A stretch of 64,000 nt of DNA, taken from the NCBI RefSeq assembly GCF_011045215.1, contig NZ_CP049201.1, one strand, 5' to 3'. This stretch comes from Escherichia coli (GTDB lineage: Bacteria > Pseudomonadota > Gammaproteobacteria > Enterobacterales > Enterobacteriaceae). Made by a program: the position numbers and the translations under genes. Every line of letters starts with the position of its first letter. The first letter of the stretch is position 1. This document shows positions 6,218-47,850 of this stretch, in pieces. The notes under the pieces were generated by a model, which saw only the letters and a program-made list of their open reading frames with translations, had not been told where the DNA came from and did not search any database.

Positions 6218-7273
6218 TTAAAACTGATAGGTCATGCCAACCGCGACAATATCATCATTATTAATATTCAATTTGTTATCGCTATCCAGTTGGTTGATTT
6301 TATAATCAACAAACGCTGACATATTTTTGTTGAAATAATACGTAGCACCGACGTCGATATAATTGACCAGATCTTCATCACCGATACCTTCAATATCTTT
6401 CCCTTTCGATAAGACATAACCCAGCGATGGACGCAGACCAAAGTCAAACTGGTATTGAGCGACCGCTTCAAAGTTCTGTGTCTTATTGGCAAAGCCGCCA
6501 GTTATTGGCGTCATTTTGCGAGTTTCAGAATAGAAAGTTGCCAGATAAATATTATTGGCATCGTATTTCAGACCTGTTGCCCATGCTTCTGCTCGCTTGC
6601 CTGTGCCACGGCTTTGCAGGTTCTGCTCGTTGGTGCGATCTGAGTTGGTATAGGCCCCACTAATGGCGAAATCGCTGCCGCCAAAGTCATATGTCAATGA
6701 CGTGCCGAAGCCATCGCCGTTTTGCTTTTTAACGTCGCGGTTTTCGTTTTTCCCTTGATATTGCAGGGTTAAGTTCAGACCATCGATAACGCCGAAGAAG
6801 TCGGTGTTCCTATACGTCGCCAGACCGCTGGCGCGTTTGGTCATAAAGTTGTCGGTCTGCGCCGAGGAGTCGCCACCAAATTCCGGGAACATATCGGTCC
6901 AGGCTTCCACGTCATACAACGCGCCCAGGTTACGGCCATAGTCGAAAGAACCCAAATCTTTATACTTCAATCCGGCAAAAGCGAGACGCGTTTTTTGCTG
7001 TGCAGTATCACTCTCCGCTTTATTTCCGGCAAACTCCGCTTCCCAACGACCATAACCAGTCAGTTGATCGTTAATTTGTGTTTCGCCTTTAAAACCAAAA
7101 CGGATATAACTCTGGTCGCCATCTTTACTGTCGTTATCACTCATATAATGCATGGCTTTAACTTTGCCATAGACATCCAGTTTATTACCGTCTTTGTTAT
7201 ATATTTCTGCGGCCTGTACGGATGCAGATGCCACAATGCCCATCACCACTAATGCCAGAGTGCTCTTTTTCAT
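6218..7273 (-). CDS. phoE: Outer membrane phosphoporin PhoE
   Basis: Signal peptide [21 protein letters not shown], porin C-terminal F; start placed at MKK rather than ORF-track MKM. Confidence 0.9.
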
Positions 7274-10043: not shown

Positions 10044-10119
10044 GCCGATATAGCTCAGTTGGTAGAGCAGCGCATTCGTAATGCGAAGGTCGTAGGTTCG
10101 ACTCCTATTATCGGCACCA
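10044..10119 (+). tRNA. thrW: tRNA-Thr (anticodon CGT)
   Basis: 76 nt GCCGATATAGCTCAGTTGGTAGAGCAGCGCATTCGTAATGCG...TCGGCACCA with anticodon loop tCGTa. Confidence 0.9.
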
Positions 10120-10133: not shown

Positions 10134-11297
10134 TTACACATCATTAGTACCTTCCTTATTTTTTGACTGGGACAAATTTGGGACCGATGGGTTCAGGATC
10201 GAGTCTATTTGCCGTGCGTGTTCGGTAAGGTGATTAGGTGCAAGGTGAGCATATCGACGAACCATTTCGATAGACTCCCAGCCTCCCATTTCCTGTAACA
10301 CTGACAACGGGACTCCGGCTTGAACCAGCCAACTTGCCCAGGTGTGTCTCAAGTCGTGAAATCTGAAATCATCAATACCAGCCCGTCTCAGCGCCGCTTT
10401 CCAGGCTGTGTTTGCGTCATACCGCATCTTCCTTACTGTTGGCGCTTTCGTTCCGTCTGGTTTGGTACAGCTTTCCTTGTACACAAATACCCAACGGTGA
10501 TGATTCCCGATTTGTTTTTTCAAAACGCGACATGCAGTATCATTCAGCGCAACGCCAATTGCGCGGTTTGATTTACTCTCTTCCGGGTTTATCCATGCCA
10601 CCCGGCGCTGCATGTCTATTTGTTGCCATTCAAGGTTGATGATGTTCGAGCGTCTTAAGCCTGTTGCCAGTGCAAATTCAACAACAGACTTTAATGGCTC
10701 CGGACATTCATCAATCAGCCTTTGTGCTTCATGGGGCTCCAGCCAGCGGATCCGTTTATTCTTTGGTTGAGGCACTTTAATAATTGGTGCCTTATCCAGC
10801 ATTTTCCATTCACGCTCTGCGGCTCTTAGTAGGGCCTTTATAAATGAAAGATGCGTAGCCTTCGTTGCAACGGACGCTGGTTTTGGCGTGTATTCTGGAA
10901 CAGGTTTCCCTTTTTTTCTGCATGCTTCTGCCCTGAGTCTCCAGTTTTCCTCATGACGCCGGTTCGTCATTTTCTGCATTGCTGAATAAATTTTTGATTC
11001 AGTAATGTCTCTTAGTTGCATTCCTGCGAAATGTTGAAGCCAGAATCCGATCCGGCTTTTGTCATCGTCCAGTGATTTTTTATGTGCTTTCTCTTCAAGC
11101 CACCTGACACACGCTTCCTCGAACGTTATATCAGGTATTTCACCAAGTTTGCTGACCCGCCATGCTTCAGCCTTTAGCTTGTCATGGAGTTCTGTCGCCT
11201 GCCTTTTGTCCTTTGTTCCAAGAGACTGTTTAAATCTTTTACCGTTCGGCAATGTGAAACTGGCGTACCATATTTCACCTCTGCGGAAGAGTGACAT
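10134..11297 (-). CDS. Phage integrase (tyrosine recombinase)
   Basis: C-terminal catalytic motif [10 protein letters not shown]...RRYAHL; adjacent to tRNA. Confidence 0.85.
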
Positions 11298-13735: not shown

Positions 13736-14098
13736 TTAACGACCTGCTGCGCGGAGTTTTCCGTCAGGTTCACCGGCAAGAGTCAGTAATTGTCCCTGGT
13801 CTTCCTGCAGAATAGTCAGGCGACCACCGCGATTGACATACATCGGCGTTTCGGTGGTGTCTTCTTCGGAAATTTTCCCGCGGTTAGTTGGGCGAACATA
13901 TGAGAGTTTGTGTTTGATTTTCACACGGTTCTCATCAAACGGTTCGATTTCCAGATTGAGTGAGACCTTCCCTTTGGTTTTCGTGTTCATCACACCGGAA
14001 GCGACCTCACTGAGAACTGCGCCGATTTTGGTTTCAAATACGCCGCCGTCCAGCTCCCCGATAAATGCCTGCACATCAGTACTGCGTTCGCTAGCCAT
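13736..14098 (-). CDS. Phage protein, YfdP-like
   Basis: Start placed at MASERSTD with GAGGAG RBS; ORF track extends upstream. Confidence 0.4.
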   Translation of the reverse strand: MASERSTDVQAFIGELDGGVFETKIGAVLSEVASGVMNTKTKGKVSLNLEIEPFDENRVKIKHKLSYVRPTNRGKISEEDTTETPMYVNRGGRLTILQEDQGQLLTLAGEPDGKLRAAGR

Positions 14099-14536
14099 TT
14101 TGCTGCTCCTCATCATATCGACCCTGCAAGGTCGGTTGGTTTCTCCACAAAACAGAGAAGAACACCTGCGGTGGCAGCCGCCCGGATGGATTGGGTTATG
14201 AGCCCGTCGTCCGGTGATGCTCTTCTCTGTTTTGCAAAAAAGGACGGTACCAGCCGGAAGCAAGGGTACAAACTGGTACCGCCAGGACTACACACAGCAT
14301 AAAGTTGTGGTGCCGGGTGCCTCCCGGTGCCTGGCGAAGGTTGCACACCAGGCGGGTGGGTATCCACAGAAGGTCGACTGTCAGCCTCAACCTTAACCCG
14401 CGTGCGCTGAGCCGCATTCACCACAACGCTAAGGATTCTCTTTGGTTGAAAATACTTAGCTGTTATGTGCCTGTCTTTTCACCACTTCAGGCTCGGTGGT
14501 ATCCTTTTAAGCCCGTATACATAAAAGGAAAATCAA

Positions 14537-14782
14537 ATGACTTTTGATGAAAAAGAACTTGATAATGCAATTAATAAAATCATCGTAACGTCGCTCTTTT
14601 CCTGTCTCAGCGACACTCAGCAGAAACAGTTCTACGAATCGGCTTTCAACATGATCGAGCGTTGTTGTTTCTGCGATGCCGACGAGTTACCTGAAAAAAT
14701 CAGGAAACAGTTGGCTGATGCTCTTCGAGTGCGACTTTCTGACCAATTTTCTGAAATGTGCTCTCCGAATTTGGACAAATAG
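14537..14782 (+). CDS. Hypothetical small protein
   Basis: 81 aa ORF with AAAAGGAAAA RBS-like sequence. Confidence 0.35.
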   Translation: MTFDEKELDNAINKIIVTSLFSCLSDTQQKQFYESAFNMIERCCFCDADELPEKIRKQLADALRVRLSDQFSEMCSPNLDK

Positions 14783-14975
14783 AAAAAGGCCATTTCCATT
14801 CAGGGTCTGATGGAAATACTTCAGCCTGTTCCAAAGCACGGCGTAAAGAGAACACAACTCCAGCCATAATCTGATGTTTCCCATTGGTCCAGCTATCGCC
14901 GCTCTGATCTACAGGGGCGGCTATGTCGTATGACCAAACGACTTCACAGTTATTGTTTAAAATCTGGACTTTCAT
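14700..14975 (-). CDS. Hypothetical small protein
   Basis: ORF convergent with previous; start uncertain. Confidence 0.25.
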   Translation of the reverse strand: MKVQILNNNCEVVWSYDIAAPVDQSGDSWTNGKHQIMAGVVFSLRRALEQAEVFPSDPEWKWPFSICPNSESTFQKIGQKVALEEHQPTVS

Positions 14976-15123
14976 TTCATACACCTGCTTTAACATGAGT
15001 GCCTAGTGGCACAACATGACTCAACGAATCATCCTGGATTTCATATGCCCCAGGCGGCTACTTCGTGGGCGTCCTGCCTGTTCGTTGTTTCTTTTGGGTA
15101 CATTATGTATCTCAAAGGTACAT

Positions 15124-15146
15124 TGTCAAGTATAAAAAAACCTGCC
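15124..15146 (-). terminator. Terminator downstream of cI-like repressor gene
   Basis: Stem AACCTGC-cgaa-GCAGGTT followed by T-run on minus strand. Confidence 0.45.
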
Positions 15147-15168: not shown

Positions 15169-15843
15169 TTAGGCTTTGATTTTGTATCTTCTTGGTTTTC
15201 CTGAGAAAATCACTGTACCAATTATAGAGCAATTACCGTTGATCTTAATGTAAGGCTCAGGCCAGTTTGGGTTTAACGCTTTGAGATAACGCTGTGTCCC
15301 ATCTTCTATCAACCTTTTGAAGGTGGTTTCGCCTGTATCGTGCATCAATGCAATAACGTCGTCACCGTGGCAGGCAGGTACTTCAGGATCGACAAAAATC
15401 ATGTCTCCCGGGCGGTACTCATCAATCATTGAATCACCTATCACCCGCAAGATATAAGTCATTTCCCCACAGGGTACAGGGCAGGGATACGTTTCTGCTG
15501 TGCTCAAATCAACCTCAGAATATCCAACTTCTTTCCATGCTCCGGCCTGTACCCATGATATGACAGGGACTAATGTGATTTGTTTATTAGTGATTGAAAC
15601 ATCAGGTTTTTTTGTGATGTTCGTTGTCTGGTGTTCTTGATCGAGCCATCCGACAGGCAGGTCGAAACATTTTTCGATGTGTCGTGCCATGCTGTCACCG
15701 ATATTTTTAGTAGCACCATCTCCCATAAACCTGCTGGTCTGGGTTGGCTCGCGATCAATCATAGTGGCAAAGGAAGAATTCCCGCCAACACCATCTCTCA
15801 GTTTTCTGGCGTTAGACCGCCGGATGTCATGGATTGTTTTCAT
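15169..15843 (-). CDS. CI-like repressor (HTH plus LexA-like S24 autopeptidase domain)
   Basis: N-terminal HTH-like region and C-terminal S24-like region; divergent from cro-like gene. Confidence 0.75.
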   Translation of the reverse strand: MKTIHDIRRSNARKLRDGVGGNSSFATMIDREPTQTSRFMGDGATKNIGDSMARHIEKCFDLPVGWLDQEHQTTNITKKPDVSITNKQITLVPVISWVQAGAWKEVGYSEVDLSTAETYPCPVPCGEMTYILRVIGDSMIDEYRPGDMIFVDPEVPACHGDDVIALMHDTGETTFKRLIEDGTQRYLKALNPNWPEPYIKINGNCSIIGTVIFSGKPRRYKIKA

Positions 15844-17073: not shown

Positions 17074-18015
17074 ATGAGCACTAAATTAACCGGCTATGTA
17101 TGGGATGGTTGCGCTGCATCAGGCATGAAATTATCCAGCGTGGCAATTATGGCCCGCCTGGCTGATTTCAGTAATGACGAAGGTGTGTGCTGGCCATCAA
17201 TTGAAACCATTGCCCGCCAGATTGGCGCGGGAATGAGTACCGTCAGAACGGCTATCGCACGGCTGGAAGCAGAAGGCTGGTTAACGCGTAAGGCGCGTCG
17301 CCAGGGTAACCGCAATGCGTCGAATGTTTATCAGCTTAACGTTGCGAAGCTTCAGGCAGCGGCATTTTCTCAACTGTCAGATTCTGACCCGTCAAAATCT
17401 GACGCATCAAAATCTGACCCGTCAAAATTTGATGCGTCGAAATCTGGCAAAAAAGCGGGTTTTCACCCGTCAGAATCTGGCGGGGATCCGTCAGTAAAAT
17501 CAAAACATGATCCGTCAGATAAAAAAACTTCTCGTCCGGACGCTTCGCAACCGGACACGCAGACGGCTGAACAGGAGTTTTTAACTCGCCATCCTGATGC
17601 GGTTGTATTCAGCCCTAAAAAGCGCCAGTGGGGAACGCAGGATGATTTGACCTGCGCACAGTGGCTCTGGAAAAAAATCATCGCCCTGTACGAGCAGGCC
17701 GCCGAATGTGACGGCGAGGTGGTTCGTCCCAAAGAACCGAACTGGACAGCCTGGGCAAACGAAATTCGCCTGATGTGTGTGCAGGATGGTCGTACTCATA
17801 AACAAATCTGCGAGATGTACAGCCGCGTCAGTCGCGATCCGTTCTGGTGCCGTAACGTGCTCAGCCCGTCGAAGCTGCGGGAAAAATGGGATGAGCTTTC
17901 CCTGCGCTTATCGCCGTCCGTCAGCACGTACACCGAAAAACGCGAAGACCCGTACTTCAAAGCCAGTTACGACAACGTGGACTACAGCCAGATCCCGGCA
18001 GGATTCAGGGGGTGA
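17074..18015 (+). CDS. Replication initiation protein (lambda O-like)
   Basis: N-terminal HTH region, internal low-complexity repeats encoded by iteron DNA. Confidence 0.55.
   Translation: MSTKLTGYVWDGCAASGMKLSSVAIMARLADFSNDEGVCWPSIETIARQIGAGMSTVRTAIARLEAEGWLTRKARRQGNRNASNVYQLNVAKLQAAAFSQLSDSDPSKSDASKSDPSKFDASKSGKKAGFHPSESGGDPSVKSKHDPSDKKTSRPDASQPDTQTAEQEFLTRHPDAVVFSPKKRQWGTQDDLTCAQWLWKKIIALYEQAAECDGEVVRPKEPNWTAWANEIRLMCVQDGRTHKQICEMYSRVSRDPFWCRNVLSPSKLREKWDELSLRLSPSVSTYTEKREDPYFKASYDNVDYSQIPAGFRG
17377..17520. repeat. Putative phage replication origin iterons inside O-like gene
   Basis: Repeated TCAAAATCTGAC / CCGTCAGAATCTG units followed by A-rich tract. Confidence 0.5.

Positions 18016-46367: not shown

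Positions 46368-47850
<1,483 letters not shown>

Follow-up and report, generated by a model that had tools for sequence, protein, structure and literature searches.

A structured minus-strand RNA leader with an RprA-identical segment in the early-left operon of an SfV-like prophage of Escherichia coli

The locus and its coding potential

What is encoded, if anything, in the 438-nt gap that separates two divergent genes of an SfV-like prophage? The segment at positions 14099-14536 of the window (the whole 64-kb stretch of DNA that was analysed) extends exactly from the ATG of a yfdP-like gene (14098, minus strand) to the ATG of an 81-aa ORF (14537, plus strand). An initial annotation had described it as GC-rich, apparently non-coding DNA of the prophage early-left region, and this description is borne out. 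The GC content is 0.57 at 14150-14449 and 0.41-0.49 in the flanks; int, xis and yfdTSRQP lie on the left, and cI (15169-15843) and a PL-like promoter (15129-15102) on the right. The segment is 98.6% identical to phage SfV, and matches to at least some part of it are present in 2784 of 5426 complete E. coli genomes, with identities of 90-99% for nearly all of these records. Across loci, the module is always found between the immunity region and the first early-left gene, with cI at 31-100% identity. On sequence comparison, the segment is the minus-strand leader of the SfV-type early-left (PL) operon, with three conserved RNA modules on the minus strand. The promoter, the flanks of the modules and the first gene are arranged as follows.

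15102-15129, minus strand: PL-like sigma-70 promoter, TTGACA-16-CATAAT, just 3' of the cI terminator (15157-15138)
15024-15085, minus strand: 62-nt structured RNA element, starting at about +10 of the PL transcript
14428-14505, minus strand: upstream leader, with hairpin P0 (14460-14428) and a segment conserved in BLAST (about 14460-14505), motif ACCACCGAGCCUGAAGUGGUGAAAAGACAGGCACAUAACAG at 14500-14460
14099-14146, minus strand: proximal yfdP leader, with the conserved GGAGAAACCAAC (14146-14135), a small hairpin (14134-14119) and the Shine-Dalgarno sequence GAGGAG (14111-14106)
13736-14098, minus strand: yfdP-like gene, 120 aa, the first gene 3' of the leader

The conserved upstream segment is also present in the related loci L055, Flotzy and Kp4866-6, and BLAST pieces of it reach 95.7% identity in Klebsiella phages and Rac-SA53. 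A plus-strand promoter at 14460-14505 was considered and dropped because its -10 is not conserved in relatives. E. coli K-12 was rejected as an experimental proxy, since its CPS-53 lacks the complete leader: homology begins 24 nt before the yfdP ATG, and just these last 24 nt of the proximal leader are kept.

Inside the segment there are only overlapping ORFs, none of which is conserved. It could be argued that one of them, foremost the 103-aa ORF at 14113-14424 (minus strand), is a real gene, given that RefSeq/PGAP annotates a pseudogene there ('frameshifted hypothetical protein') and that residues 62-97 give a partial PHROG match (phrog_33599, E=2.8e-15). We find this explanation scarcely credible. 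The frame of the ORF differs in SfV, ST64B and most related loci, where it is split between frames, its start is a GTG without a ribosome-binding site, it crosses a strong terminator and two covarying RNA structures, and a Pfam search with four candidate ORFs, this one included, matched zero families. The PHROG family is most simply an annotation artefact on the same DNA; since PHROGs list both overlapping ORFs flanking the region, such matches do not discriminate. A conserved protein-coding gene, which the initial annotation had named as a finding that would overturn its view, was not found here, the Pfam result being blank and the frame of the 103-aa ORF broken in homologues.

A core related to STnc100/PasD, an RprA seed and a terminator

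The segment folds above chance with a bias towards the minus strand: the minimum free energy of the minus-strand RNA has a z-score of -6.0, that of the plus-strand RNA one of -3.6. In the covariation analysis and the Rfam search, both suggested at the outset together with folding, compensatory changes are present in the core helices, the pseudoknot and the inverted repeat, and a full-length match to STnc100 was obtained, at a score below the gathering threshold. The first modules are composed of the following features.

14304-14427, minus strand: structured core of 124 nt, STnc100/PasD-like, 'subtype B' (Rfam match and covariation)
14427-14419 pairing with 14312-14304, minus strand: core helix P1 (predicted fold)
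Minus strand: core junction J, AAU
14415-14400, minus strand: core helix P2, GCGGC-UCAGC-GC-A-CGC
14394-14388 (strand a) with 14343-14337 (strand a', in the loop of hairpin b, 14352-14330), minus strand: core pseudoknot
14327-14313, minus strand: core helix P5, CCGGG-AGGCA-CCCGG
14286-14299, minus strand: single-stranded seed UGCUGUGUGUAGUC, identical to E. coli RprA nt 62-75 in an alignment with K-12 rprA
14236-14283, minus strand: intrinsic terminator, a 13-bp G+C-rich stem (14283-14242, dG -20.5 kcal/mol) followed by U6 (14241-14236)

The Rfam model STnc100 (RF02076) aligns with the core over its full length at 38.4 bits (E=1.4e-5), and a scan at the gathering threshold of 47 bits does not report it. 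On the same scale, the canonical copies reach 165 and 136 bits, those of the holin type 79-81 and the remaining subtype B loci 31-38. The 22-mer CACCGGGAGGCACCCGGCACCA, exact at 14329-14308, is the near-invariant STnc100 3' strand that closes P1. The homology is corroborated by the pairing statistics of P1, P2 and P5, in which 94.5% of the cells are paired and 61 cells are changed on both sides, values equalled by none of 500 shuffles. In P2, 100% of the cells are paired and three pairs are altered on both sides (from CCCCC/GGGGG to GCGGC/GCCGC); the outer pairs of P1 covary, and the stem of P5 covaries in further subtypes (GGUGG/CCACC, GGGGG/CCCCC). These compensatory substitutions extend across phages of Escherichia, Salmonella, Klebsiella and Citrobacter. 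The pseudoknot is backed by at least 12 different a/a' sequence pairs; strands complement their own partner over a mean of 7.0 nt against 5.5 nt when permuted, and none of 20000 permutations equalled the observed value. Judged from these alignments, the core is a divergent homologue of the STnc100/PasD prophage sRNAs, closed by P1, multi-helical and pseudoknotted. Members of this family are expressed in lysogens and associated with Hfq (PMC5331693; bioRxiv 10.64898/2026.05.13.724894). PasB was rejected as the identity of the locus, since PasB sits in a structural-gene operon. An Rfam E-value scan and a motif search found no second core and no second PL-type element in the 64-kb window.

The Rfam STnc100 alignment reaches its 3' end at the terminator, giving a predicted RNA of roughly 200 nt with a 3' terminator, and we propose that this is where a small RNA ends. 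A simple terminator scanner missed it because its loop exceeds 8 nt. Directly upstream of the core, a consensus scan and a position-specific search of subtype B found no sigma-70 promoter; synthesis of the RNA would consequently depend solely on PL or on read-through from cI, and stable lysogens may lack it.

The seed corresponds to the conserved 3' seed UUGCUGUGUGUAGUC of RprA, which in the RprAproc module stands directly 5' of the terminator; here it lies 2 nt 5' of the terminator stem, and all 14 of its 14 nt are those of RprA nt 62-75. It occurs once in the window, and an exact match arose in 2 of 2000 shuffles. The seed, which makes up the linker, is unpaired in the centroid fold; in the minimum free energy fold of the 438 nt, the seed is partly paired with an upstream segment, and imperfect pairing with the seed is possible for the 3' part of the conserved upstream leader. 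The seed stays unchanged in leader variants that have different flanks or even a different 5' domain. RprA identity covers 26 nt in Flotzy and the whole 3' 47 nt in L009, and these two loci score 41 and 66 bits with the Rfam RprA model (RF00034, gathering score 70 bits), which has no match in the window at E<=1. The central rpoS-pairing region of RprA, AAAUCCCCUGAGUGAAACAACGAAUU, is absent from the window RNA, and RprA nt 31-48 bear only a distant resemblance to P1-5'/J/P2-5' of canonical STnc100 copies. In the mEp460/Stx2c-type leader, P1, the terminator and the hairpin are kept and the linker is different, as expected for exchangeable seeds.

The seed is fully complementary to the csgD 5'UTR from -98 to -85. 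The predicted duplex comprises 14-15 contiguous pairs over the seed and has an energy of -25.6 kcal/mol, a result matched by 4 of 500 shuffles. The corresponding interactions of RprA, of nt 60-97 with csgD site I and of nt 45-75 with dgcM, have been validated by compensatory mutation (PMC3465796), and the 47-nt processed form, RprA60-105 or RprAproc, is a natural and active short species (PMC3465796, PMC9262595). The predicted duplex of the seed with dgcM is no better than that of shuffled seeds (43 of 500), so that only csgD is proposed as a target with any confidence.

The same features could belong to a purely cis-acting leader, whether an attenuator or riboswitch-like switch, an antiterminator that modifies RNA polymerase as HK022 put does, or an element acting on the processing, stability or translation of yfdP, any terminated RNA being a by-product that has no targets in trans. 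We hold this to be unlikely, though by no means negligible. The locus does lie inside the PL operon leader without a promoter of its own. In the relative L055, 61 nt separate the core from the start of yfdP, a deletion between GUGUGUA repeats having removed the seed, terminator and hairpin; the core thus directly adjoins yfdP, and can exist as a purely cis leader element. In many relatives of subtype A, a promoter located between Q and the holin gene has its +1 at the first nucleotide of the core, which thereby forms the 5' end of the late operon, itself antiterminated as well. Moreover, a pseudoknotted fold and an invariant strand of 22 nt exceed the usual need of a base-pairing sRNA. Several observations stand against a role in cis alone. 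A seed identical to RprA that stays invariant amid changing surroundings is hard to explain for a cis element, and members of the STnc100/PasD family are abundant, Hfq-bound sRNAs with many RIL-seq partners. No conserved alternative pairing of terminator and antiterminator was found across subtypes; a riboswitch-like expression platform was rejected because, by eye, no pairing between core and terminator held across subtypes, and because L055 has no terminator. The core is unlike HK022 putL and, by eye, the HK639 put-like RNA in sequence and architecture (PMC9378689), and antitermination is more readily assigned to the 62-nt element that directly follows PL.

This 62-nt element is found in phages of at least 10 genera, downstream of at least 8 different PL/operator types, and 5 of the 15 pairs of its consensus structure show compensatory changes. 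It is a candidate cis antitermination (nut/put-like) site that would allow read-through of the terminator at 14283-14236. Comparison of the PL leader that holds it (15000-15135) with HK022 immunity-region DNA gave no significant similarity; known antiterminator RNAs were also set aside, the PL leader and the core being, by inspection, unlike the annotated HK639 put-like and M3-like RNAs.

The inverted repeat as a tRNA-like RNA

The initial annotation had centred on a long inverted repeat and additional local hairpins, and had assigned them to neither strand. Both are present: the arms, 14148-14171 and 14211-14234, measure 24 nt each, are 83% complementary and lie 39 nt apart, with the previously quoted sequences as their outer 16 nt. 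The prominence given to the repeat did not hold, for it is the third, downstream module, and the core, seed and terminator (14236-14427) are more informative.

14148-14234, minus strand: Y-shaped tRNA-like RNA, corresponding to the inverted repeat, with a stem of about 20 bp closing a three-way junction (dG -43.8 kcal/mol)
Arm 1, CCGGA...UCCGG, minus strand: carries GGGCUCAUAACCC (14205-14193), identical to the anticodon stem-loop of initiator tRNA-fMet
Arm 2, 14181-14168, minus strand: small hairpin

The alignment fold of this element contains 34-38 pairs, 6-7 of them with compensatory changes, and its conserved U.G and G.U pairs are valid on the minus strand only. It has 14 nt in common with metZ: CGGGCUCAUAACCC in the hairpin arm is that of the metZ initiator tRNA-fMet, including the three G-C pairs and the CAU loop. 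The anticodon-like loop is near-invariant, and its position 37 is A or U. Relatives located beside phage tRNA genes possess an acceptor-like stem of 6-7 bp and a 3' (A/G)CCA, as in tRNA, whereas in the window the stem of about 20 bp replaces the acceptor-like stem and there is no CCA, D arm or T-loop. A tRNA identity was rejected, as ARAGORN calls none in 13900-14700 and the Rfam tRNA model gives no match; its relatives are not recognised by ARAGORN either, and those in L125, L033, L141 and L195 do not match the Rfam model even at E<=5.

It had initially been suggested that the segment could encode a structured ncRNA or a recombination or binding site. The first part of this proposal is supported, with three minus-strand modules of which one is a sub-threshold STnc100/PasD relative; the second is not, since the repeat is kept by compensatory changes and by G.U and U.G pairs that exist only in the minus-strand RNA. 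At the DNA level the repeat could have served in recombination, as a palindrome or cruciform for protein binding, or as a bidirectional terminator insulating the divergent genes, and it is indeed long and near-perfect, is preceded by an A-run and followed by a T-run on both strands, and lies in a segment whose plus strand also folds above chance (z = -3.6). We nevertheless regard such a DNA-level element as very improbable. On the other strand the conserved U.G and G.U pairs become A.C mismatches, and the loop contains two conserved sub-hairpins, each of which covaries. Termination is not conserved, because GUGUAUGG, and not a U-run, follows the 3' arm in most relatives. There is also nothing to insulate, as the repeat lies between the starts of divergent genes, with no converging transcription.

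The composite nature of the leader also raises the question of whether it is evolutionary debris, a mosaic of decaying tRNA and sRNA fragments recombined from the late-region cluster of tRNA genes and morons, and hitch-hiking without present function. BLAST coverage is a mosaic and the modules differ in their distribution. The core and the tRNA-like element both occur around late-region tRNA genes as well, the order in L033 being STnc100, two tRNAs, the tRNA-like element and holin, and the deletion in L055 removed seed, terminator and hairpin together. This explanation appears improbable to us: helices are maintained by compensatory substitutions in phages of four genera (Escherichia, Salmonella, Klebsiella, Citrobacter), the seed and the anticodon-like loop are near-invariant, and about half of the complete E. 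coli genomes carry the module, nearly all of the matching records being 90-99% identical.

Proposed function and relation to known systems

The reading towards which we lean, with modest confidence, is that the leader specifies an early, PL-driven sRNA of the Hfq type that acts like processed RprA, its terminator doubling as a conditional barrier before yfdP-int. When PL fires, upon infection or prophage induction, polymerases halting at 14236-14241 would release this sRNA, with a predicted length of about 190-215 nt or more, upstream of a processing or regulatory hairpin. Like the 47-nt processed RprA, it would pair with RprA targets (csgD, probably dgcM) and thereby repress curli and biofilm functions. 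RNase E could cut within the AU-rich UUUAU that immediately precedes the seed, and so detach an RprAproc-like species from the scaffold. Polymerases resistant to termination, for which the 62-nt PL-proximal element is the candidate agent, would continue into yfdP...xis-int, and it is this read-through that would make the terminator a conditional barrier. The inverted repeat would then represent an RNA in its own right, conserved, tRNA-like and built on a three-way junction, which sits 3' of the terminator and 5' of the yfdP ribosome-binding site; its most plausible role lies in processing or stability, parting the sRNA from the mRNA on read-through transcripts. Since the leader appears to encode a structured sRNA with the target-recognition sequence of RprA, the phage probably taps the biofilm and stress RNA network of its host.

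It can be hypothesised further, and only tentatively, as something possible rather than probable, that the PL sRNA of SfV/ST64B-type phages, carried by about half of E. coli genomes, poses as processed RprA and shuts down csgD and dgcM (curli and c-di-GMP control of biofilm) at lytic onset. In this broader proposal RprA, STnc100 and PasD would form one ancient family on a pseudoknotted scaffold, possibly derived from tRNA, whose own role would be to bind a protein or RNA polymerase, or to shield against nucleases; the adjacent copy of the initiator anticodon arm would be a second, independent RNA with a function of its own, such as that of a processing signal or decoy. The comparison does suggest shared ancestry of RprA and the STnc100/PasD prophage RNAs.

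If the favoured reading is correct, an RNA locus whose target can be tested would replace what RefSeq labels, in thousands of E. coli and Shigella genomes, a frameshifted hypothetical gene. It would also be a clear example of a phage that has copied the seed of an Hfq sRNA of the core genome, here RprA, and would link prophage induction to the csgD/curli biofilm switch. The STnc100/PasD family is extended to subtypes that Rfam cannot yet detect, and its model gains a pseudoknot supported by covariation. Two unannotated conserved phage RNA motifs are added, the tRNA-like element with an initiator anticodon arm and the PL-proximal 62-nt element, and the latter may represent a new class of cis antiterminator in phages without an N gene. 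Full-text literature searches with the sequence of the seed or of the core, and for phage RNAs described as 'RprA-like', yielded nothing.

Among known RNAs, STnc100/PasD is alike in its core architecture, the 22-nt 3' strand, P1, P2, the hairpin before P5, the downstream intrinsic terminator and its lambdoid hosts. The window copy is distinguished by a P2 stem whose sequence has been swapped through compensatory changes and by a different inner domain. It resides in the early-left PL leader, whereas the others are late, downstream of stx/Q and upstream of nanS-p (esterase) or holin; it lacks the promoter of the STnc100 subtype A copies, which ends 7 nt before P1 (UGGUG), and its linker carries the RprA seed in place of the STnc100/PasD seeds. 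With RprA it shares a single-stranded seed directly 5' of a U-tailed terminator and the complementarity to csgD site I. The terminator sequence differs, and the rpoS-pairing region and the Rcs-dependent promoter are missing. The gene is phage-borne, whereas that of RprA is at the ydiK-ydiL locus, and the 5' domain is a 124-nt pseudoknotted scaffold instead of two small hairpins.

StxS and lambda 6S RNA, sRNAs that originate as short transcripts from the leaders of antiterminated phage operons (PMC7547250), resemble what is proposed here, an sRNA arising by termination within the leader of an operon otherwise antiterminated; the subtype A relatives, with their start at +1 of the late promoter between Q and holin, come close to this arrangement. 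The window copy, in contrast, is early-left, about 670 nt from PL with an ORF between, and has no sequence similarity to these RNAs. Finally, HK022 put and the HK639 put-like RNA resemble the present locus in being structured RNAs in the leader of a lambdoid early operon, upstream of terminators (PMC9378689; HK639 annotation). The put RNA is a 70-nt two-stem structure right after PL, whereas the core is closed by P1, pseudoknotted and about 670 nt from PL, and by eye it is also unlike the HK639 RNA. The put-like position is held here by the separate 62-nt element at 15085-15024.

Prophage setting and coding content of the leader

An SfV-like, lambdoid prophage lies in the window, integrated beside a tRNA gene (10044-10116), and the segment studied here, 14099-14536, forms the leader of its early-left (PL) operon, read on the minus strand. 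The prophage is arranged as follows.

10134-11297, minus strand: int
minus strand: xis-like gene and yfdT/S/R/Q/P homologues
start at 14098, minus strand: yfdP-like gene
15129-15102, minus strand: PL-like promoter, TTGACA-16-CATAAT
15157-15138, minus strand: strong terminator after cI
15169-15843, minus strand: cI-like repressor
from about 15930: rightward early genes

Four RNA elements are distinguished on the transcript from PL.

15085-15024, minus strand: 62-nt structured RNA element, starting at about +10
14427-14304, minus strand: module 1, STnc100/PasD-like core (Rfam and covariation)
14299-14236, minus strand: module 2, RprA seed and terminator
14234-14148, minus strand: module 3, tRNA-like RNA

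The initial annotation described a GC-rich, apparently non-coding segment with a long inverted repeat, and this description is borne out. Its coordinates are those of the exact gap between the yfdP ATG and the ATG, at 14537, of a plus-strand 81-aa ORF; the GC content reaches 0.57 at 14150-14449 versus 0.41-0.49 in the surroundings, and the repeat is located at 14148-14171/14211-14234. RNA folding, one of the checks suggested, gave z = -6.0 for the minus-strand RNA and -3.6 for the plus-strand RNA when the 438 nt were compared with shuffles. The segment is 98.6% identical to that of phage SfV, and 2784 of 5426 complete E. coli genomes match some part of it, 1813 of them covering at least 80%. 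RefSeq/PGAP labels 14113-14424(-) as a 'frameshifted hypothetical protein' pseudogene. The frames of this ORF are broken apart in SfV, in ST64B and in most related loci, a Pfam search with it returned no family, and it crosses the terminator; we therefore rejected it as a gene and treat the segment as non-coding. The pseudogene call propagated over the RNA locus is probably a systematic mis-annotation across many genomes. Small ORFs are annotated over the RNA locus in some phage records.

Upstream, ORFs 14537-14782(+) and 14700-14975(-) lie on opposite strands, overlap by ~80 bp and belong one each to phrog_3311 and phrog_3195. The latter is orf33 in the SfV annotation and the former has the better ribosome-binding site; it is likely that, where they overlap, at most one of them is real. 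Elsewhere in the window, short direct and inverted repeats (GACxCxUCAAAAUCUGA...) at 17375-17449 (+), within ORF 17074-18015, lie where a replication-type protein has its repetitive DPSKSDASKS stretch, and they look like origin iterons; similar repeats occur beside yfdO in K-12. A microRNA match at this site was dismissed as spurious, arising from the short repeat run. Rfam weakly matches 46900-46956 (+) to CssrB, an sRNA of the Shigella chromosome (32.7 bits against a gathering score of 76, E=0.008).

The structured core and its Rfam relatives

The Rfam search proposed in the initial annotation had a divided outcome: at gathering thresholds the segment gave no matches, and a permissive scan returned STnc100 (RF02076) as the sole relevant match, over the full model on the minus strand from 14449 to 14234 (E=1.4e-5), with 38.4 bits against a gathering score of 47. 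As a test of homology, viral contigs were searched for the 22-mer CACCGGGAGGCACCCGGCACCA, common to the STnc100 model and the window. This yielded 120 loci, which reduction at 93% identity brought to 27 cores with one common architecture.

P1: (N)NUGGUG...CACCAN(N)
junction after P1: 3 nt, AAU
P2: 5-bp hairpin with bulged A and loop U-N-N-G-C
variable inner domain, then hairpin b
P5: invariant hairpin CCGGG-AGGCA-CCCGG, adjoining the P1 3' strand

Covariation across homologous prophages, a further check on the list, supports these helices: in the 27-sequence alignment P1, P2 and P5 pair in 94.5% of cells, both sides have changed in 61 cells, and none of 500 shuffles was as good. Three double compensatory changes set the window's P2 (GCGGC-UCAGC-GC-A-CGC) apart from the canonical CCCCC-UGUGC-GG-A-GGG. 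Flotzy and Kp4866-6, with a P5 stem GGUGG/CCACC, and the viral contig L009, with GGGGG/CCCCC, keep the AGGCA loop and are further relatives invisible to Rfam. In nearly all members the segment 3' of P2 complements the loop of hairpin b, with at least 12 distinct sequence pairs (in the window, AAGGUUG 14394-14388 with CAACCUU 14343-14337). The longest within-sequence complement averages 7.0 nt versus 5.5 +/- 0.2 with the loops permuted between sequences, a mean that 0 of 20000 permutations reached. This complementarity is a pseudoknot that is missing from the Rfam structure; ST64B keeps the pseudoknot partner and has lost the competing local hairpin. The STnc100 scores of the subtypes are as follows.

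canonical copies: 165 and 136 bits
holin-type copies: 79-81 bits
subtype B (window, ST64B, L055, L009, L020): 31-38 bits
subtype C (Flotzy, Kp4866-6): not detected

This calibration indicates that the window locus is a genuine but sub-threshold branch of the STnc100/PasD family.

STnc100 is expressed in EHEC lysogens, and EDL933 has eleven copies, one of them Northern-verified (PMC5331693); one copy lies 75 nt 3' of stx2 (PMC12370729). A 2026 preprint links STnc100 with PasD, an abundant, Hfq-bound EPEC sRNA, and makes no mention of a pseudoknot, RprA or an early-region variant (bioRxiv 10.64898/2026.05.13.724894). Canonical and holin-type cores are found 3' of stxB or Q and 5' of the nanS-p esterase or a holin gene. 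In nine divergent STnc100-type members on viral contigs (L018, L033, L012, L021, L025, L027, L028, L056, L008), a sigma-70 promoter, with TTGACx as -35 in most, ends exactly 7 nt before UGGUG, which places the core at +1, the 5' end of a late-promoter transcript. The neighbours checked at several of these loci are Q-type antiterminators (three PHROG families) on the 5' side and holins (three families) on the 3' side. Subtype B has no promoter of this kind, and it is always positioned between the immunity region, with a cI 31-100% identical to that of the window, and the first early-left gene, usually yfdP.

Related RNAs are densely arrayed on one strand at L009:3200-4700 (minus strand). In order, these are an RprA-like 3' domain scoring 66 bits in Rfam, a core of subtype C and then one of subtype B, a tRNA-like element that has both a D arm and a T arm, a 62-bit core of subtype A and a CAU-anticodon tRNA. 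The rightward early region of ST64B matches isrK (64 bits) and C4 antisense RNA (80 bits) at 6232-6420 (+); no counterpart of either was found in the window.

The RprA seed, the terminator and the tRNA-like repeat

Rfam matches to RprA (gathering score 70) in related phage loci provided the lead to the RprA seed. Flotzy scores 41 bits and has in common with RprA a 26-nt stretch extending into the terminator, and L009 scores 66 bits and carries essentially RprA's last 47 nt. In the window, the linker UUUAUGCUGUGUGUAGUCCU lies between the core and the terminator hairpin and is unpaired in the centroid fold. Its 14 nt UGCUGUGUGUAGUC, occurring once in the window, are E. coli RprA nt 62-75, a match reached by 2 of 2000 shuffles. 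The terminator consists of a hairpin (14283-14242) with a G+C-rich stem of 13 bp and a dG of -20.5 kcal/mol, and ends in U6 (14241-14236).

The seed is invariant among leader variants with differing flanking bases, and it is kept where the upstream core is replaced or absent (comparison loci L128, L145, L157, L162, L171, L175, L176). In the mEp460/Stx2c-type leader (L135, phage mEp460, 5' of yfdP), P1 (GUUGUGGUGAAU...UCACCACAAC), terminator and tRNA-like hairpin are all retained; the inner core differs and the linker is AGCCACUGCUUU. This leader is a fourth subtype with another putative seed, and the linker swap is the pattern expected of exchangeable seeds. RprA itself reportedly has two separate seed domains, as described by Papenfort et al. 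in 2015. A short segment at about 14460-14505 (-), as mapped by BLAST, carries the motif ACCACCGAGCCUGAAGUGGUGAAAAGACAGGCAC...; Klebsiella phages have it at 95.7% identity, and Rac-SA53, L055, Flotzy and Kp4866-6 have it too. It directly adjoins the RprA-like seed in some leaders (L157, L175), and the MFE structure of the window shows the 3' part of the segment paired with the seed.

RprA also exists naturally as its last 47 nt (RprAproc, RprA60-105), a stable RNA in which target regulation is retained (PMC9262595, PMC3465796). Using compensatory mutations, Mika et al. demonstrated pairing of RprA nt 60-97 with csgD site I, including csgD CAGC(-87..-90), and of nt 45-75 with ydaM/dgcM (PMC3465796). 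The K-12 csgD leader at -98..-85 is ACUACACACAGCAG, a perfect complement of the common seed. The predicted csgD duplex reaches -24.6 kcal/mol with RprA and -25.6 with the window linker, which 4 of 500 shuffles equalled; the predicted dgcM duplex with the window linker is no better than shuffles (43/500).

The inverted repeat (14234-14148) folds, in alignments of 7 and of 12 divergent versions, into a consensus of 34-38 pairs: a three-way junction, from which a long arm and a small hairpin extend, is closed by a stem of ~20 bp. Compensatory changes affect 6-7 pairs (for example, one column pair has 6 G-C and 6 C-G, and another 6 C-G and 5 A-U), and on the plus strand the conserved U.G and G.U pairs would turn into mismatches. 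Within the long arm, CGGGCUCAUAACCC exactly matches initiator tRNA-fMet (metZ) over the anticodon stem-loop, the three G-C pairs included. Most relatives have no U-run after the 3' arm, so a terminator role of the repeat is not conserved. With BLAST and a second motif scan, the inner part was located in two settings. Type I is the leader hairpin, nearly always directly 3' of a terminator U-run. Type II belongs to Klebsiella-type phages, where it immediately follows tRNA genes in the interval from Q to the lysis genes, with a closing stem GGCCUG/CAGGCC and an (A/G)CCA end as in the tRNA acceptor end. In this second setting, tRNA-like RNAs of ~70 nt (GGCCUGA...GGGCUCAUAAUCC...GCGUUG-loop-CAACGC...CAGGCC(A/G)CCA), whose T-like hairpin covaries, are found at L125:2475-2545(-), L126, L033:2236-2310, L138, L141, L180 and L195. 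The late region of L033 runs STnc100 core, two tRNAs, tRNA-like element, holin, which is the module order of the early-left leader.

Proposed mode of action, ancestry and known systems

The core could be read as a plain cis-acting leader element. In L055, whose YfdP is 60% identical, the yfdP start follows 61 nt after the core; its ...CGUGUGUAUGGAGA... reflects a deletion, between the seed's GUGUGUA and the hairpin-end UGUGUA, of the intervening modules. The core can thus stand on its own as a leader element, which keeps the cis-acting reading alive. For a trans-acting sRNA, we infer the following steps from PL transcription to the hairpin boundary. Transcripts from PL would traverse orf33 and arrive at the leader, where part of the polymerases would stop at 14236-14241 and yield an sRNA of the Hfq type, roughly 190 nt long or longer (the span from core to U-tract is 192 nt and the Rfam-aligned span 216 nt). 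RNase E may free a shorter, RprAproc-like form by cutting at an AU-rich stretch immediately 5' of the seed, and the seed would work like processed RprA on csgD and possibly on further RprA targets. Termination-resistant polymerases would go on into yfdP...int, the tRNA-like hairpin serving as a processing or stability boundary on read-through transcripts.

No N-like gene is present before the terminator, and Flotzy and ST64B have zero annotated genes from PL to the yfdP homologue. The best candidate for a cis antiterminator is the 62-nt element, which lies 3' of at least 8 different promoter/operator types in phages of ten or more genera, including Escherichia, Salmonella, Klebsiella, Yersinia, Pantoea, Pectobacterium, Providencia and Aeromonas. 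In its fold, two hairpins form a closed structure, and 5 of the 15 consensus pairs covary. It is absent from Rfam, bears no resemblance to the put RNAs of HK022 and HK639, and possibly represents a cis antiterminator or nut-like site of a new class.

At the evolutionary level, RprA nt 31-48 (GCAUGGAAAUCCCCUGAG) are identical at 17/20 positions to the canonical STnc100 P1-5'/J/P2-5' strands (1/3000 shuffles), a resemblance which suggests that RprA may be an internally deleted relative of the STnc100-type phage family. Nucleotides 55-105 of K-12 rprA (L247:173-278) are similar to the P1-3'/linker/terminator part of early-left subtypes. Together, P1 (7 bp in subtype A) and P5 (5 bp) match a tRNA acceptor/T-arm stack in their dimensions, and L009 holds an apparent intermediate with D arm and T arm, CCGGGUUCAAGUCCCGG, between GUUGUG and CACAAC. 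That the scaffold arose from a tRNA is a lead rather than a result.

From its sequence, this is a real, conserved and functional-looking RNA locus, which would give an unexpectedly specific, testable link to the host RprA-csgD circuit, accompanied by two so far unannotated RNA motifs. Full-text literature searches, which are weak evidence of novelty, returned nothing describing a phage RprA mimic or these sequences. Among known systems, the window core is homologous to STnc100/PasD and would work alike, but it falls short of the Rfam threshold and occupies a new context. The tRNA-like element has an anticodon arm identical to that of metZ, although neither ARAGORN nor Rfam models recognise it or its tRNA-like relatives. 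The seed and terminator would work like RprAproc, whereas the window RNA is not a member of the RprA family by model, promoter or locus.
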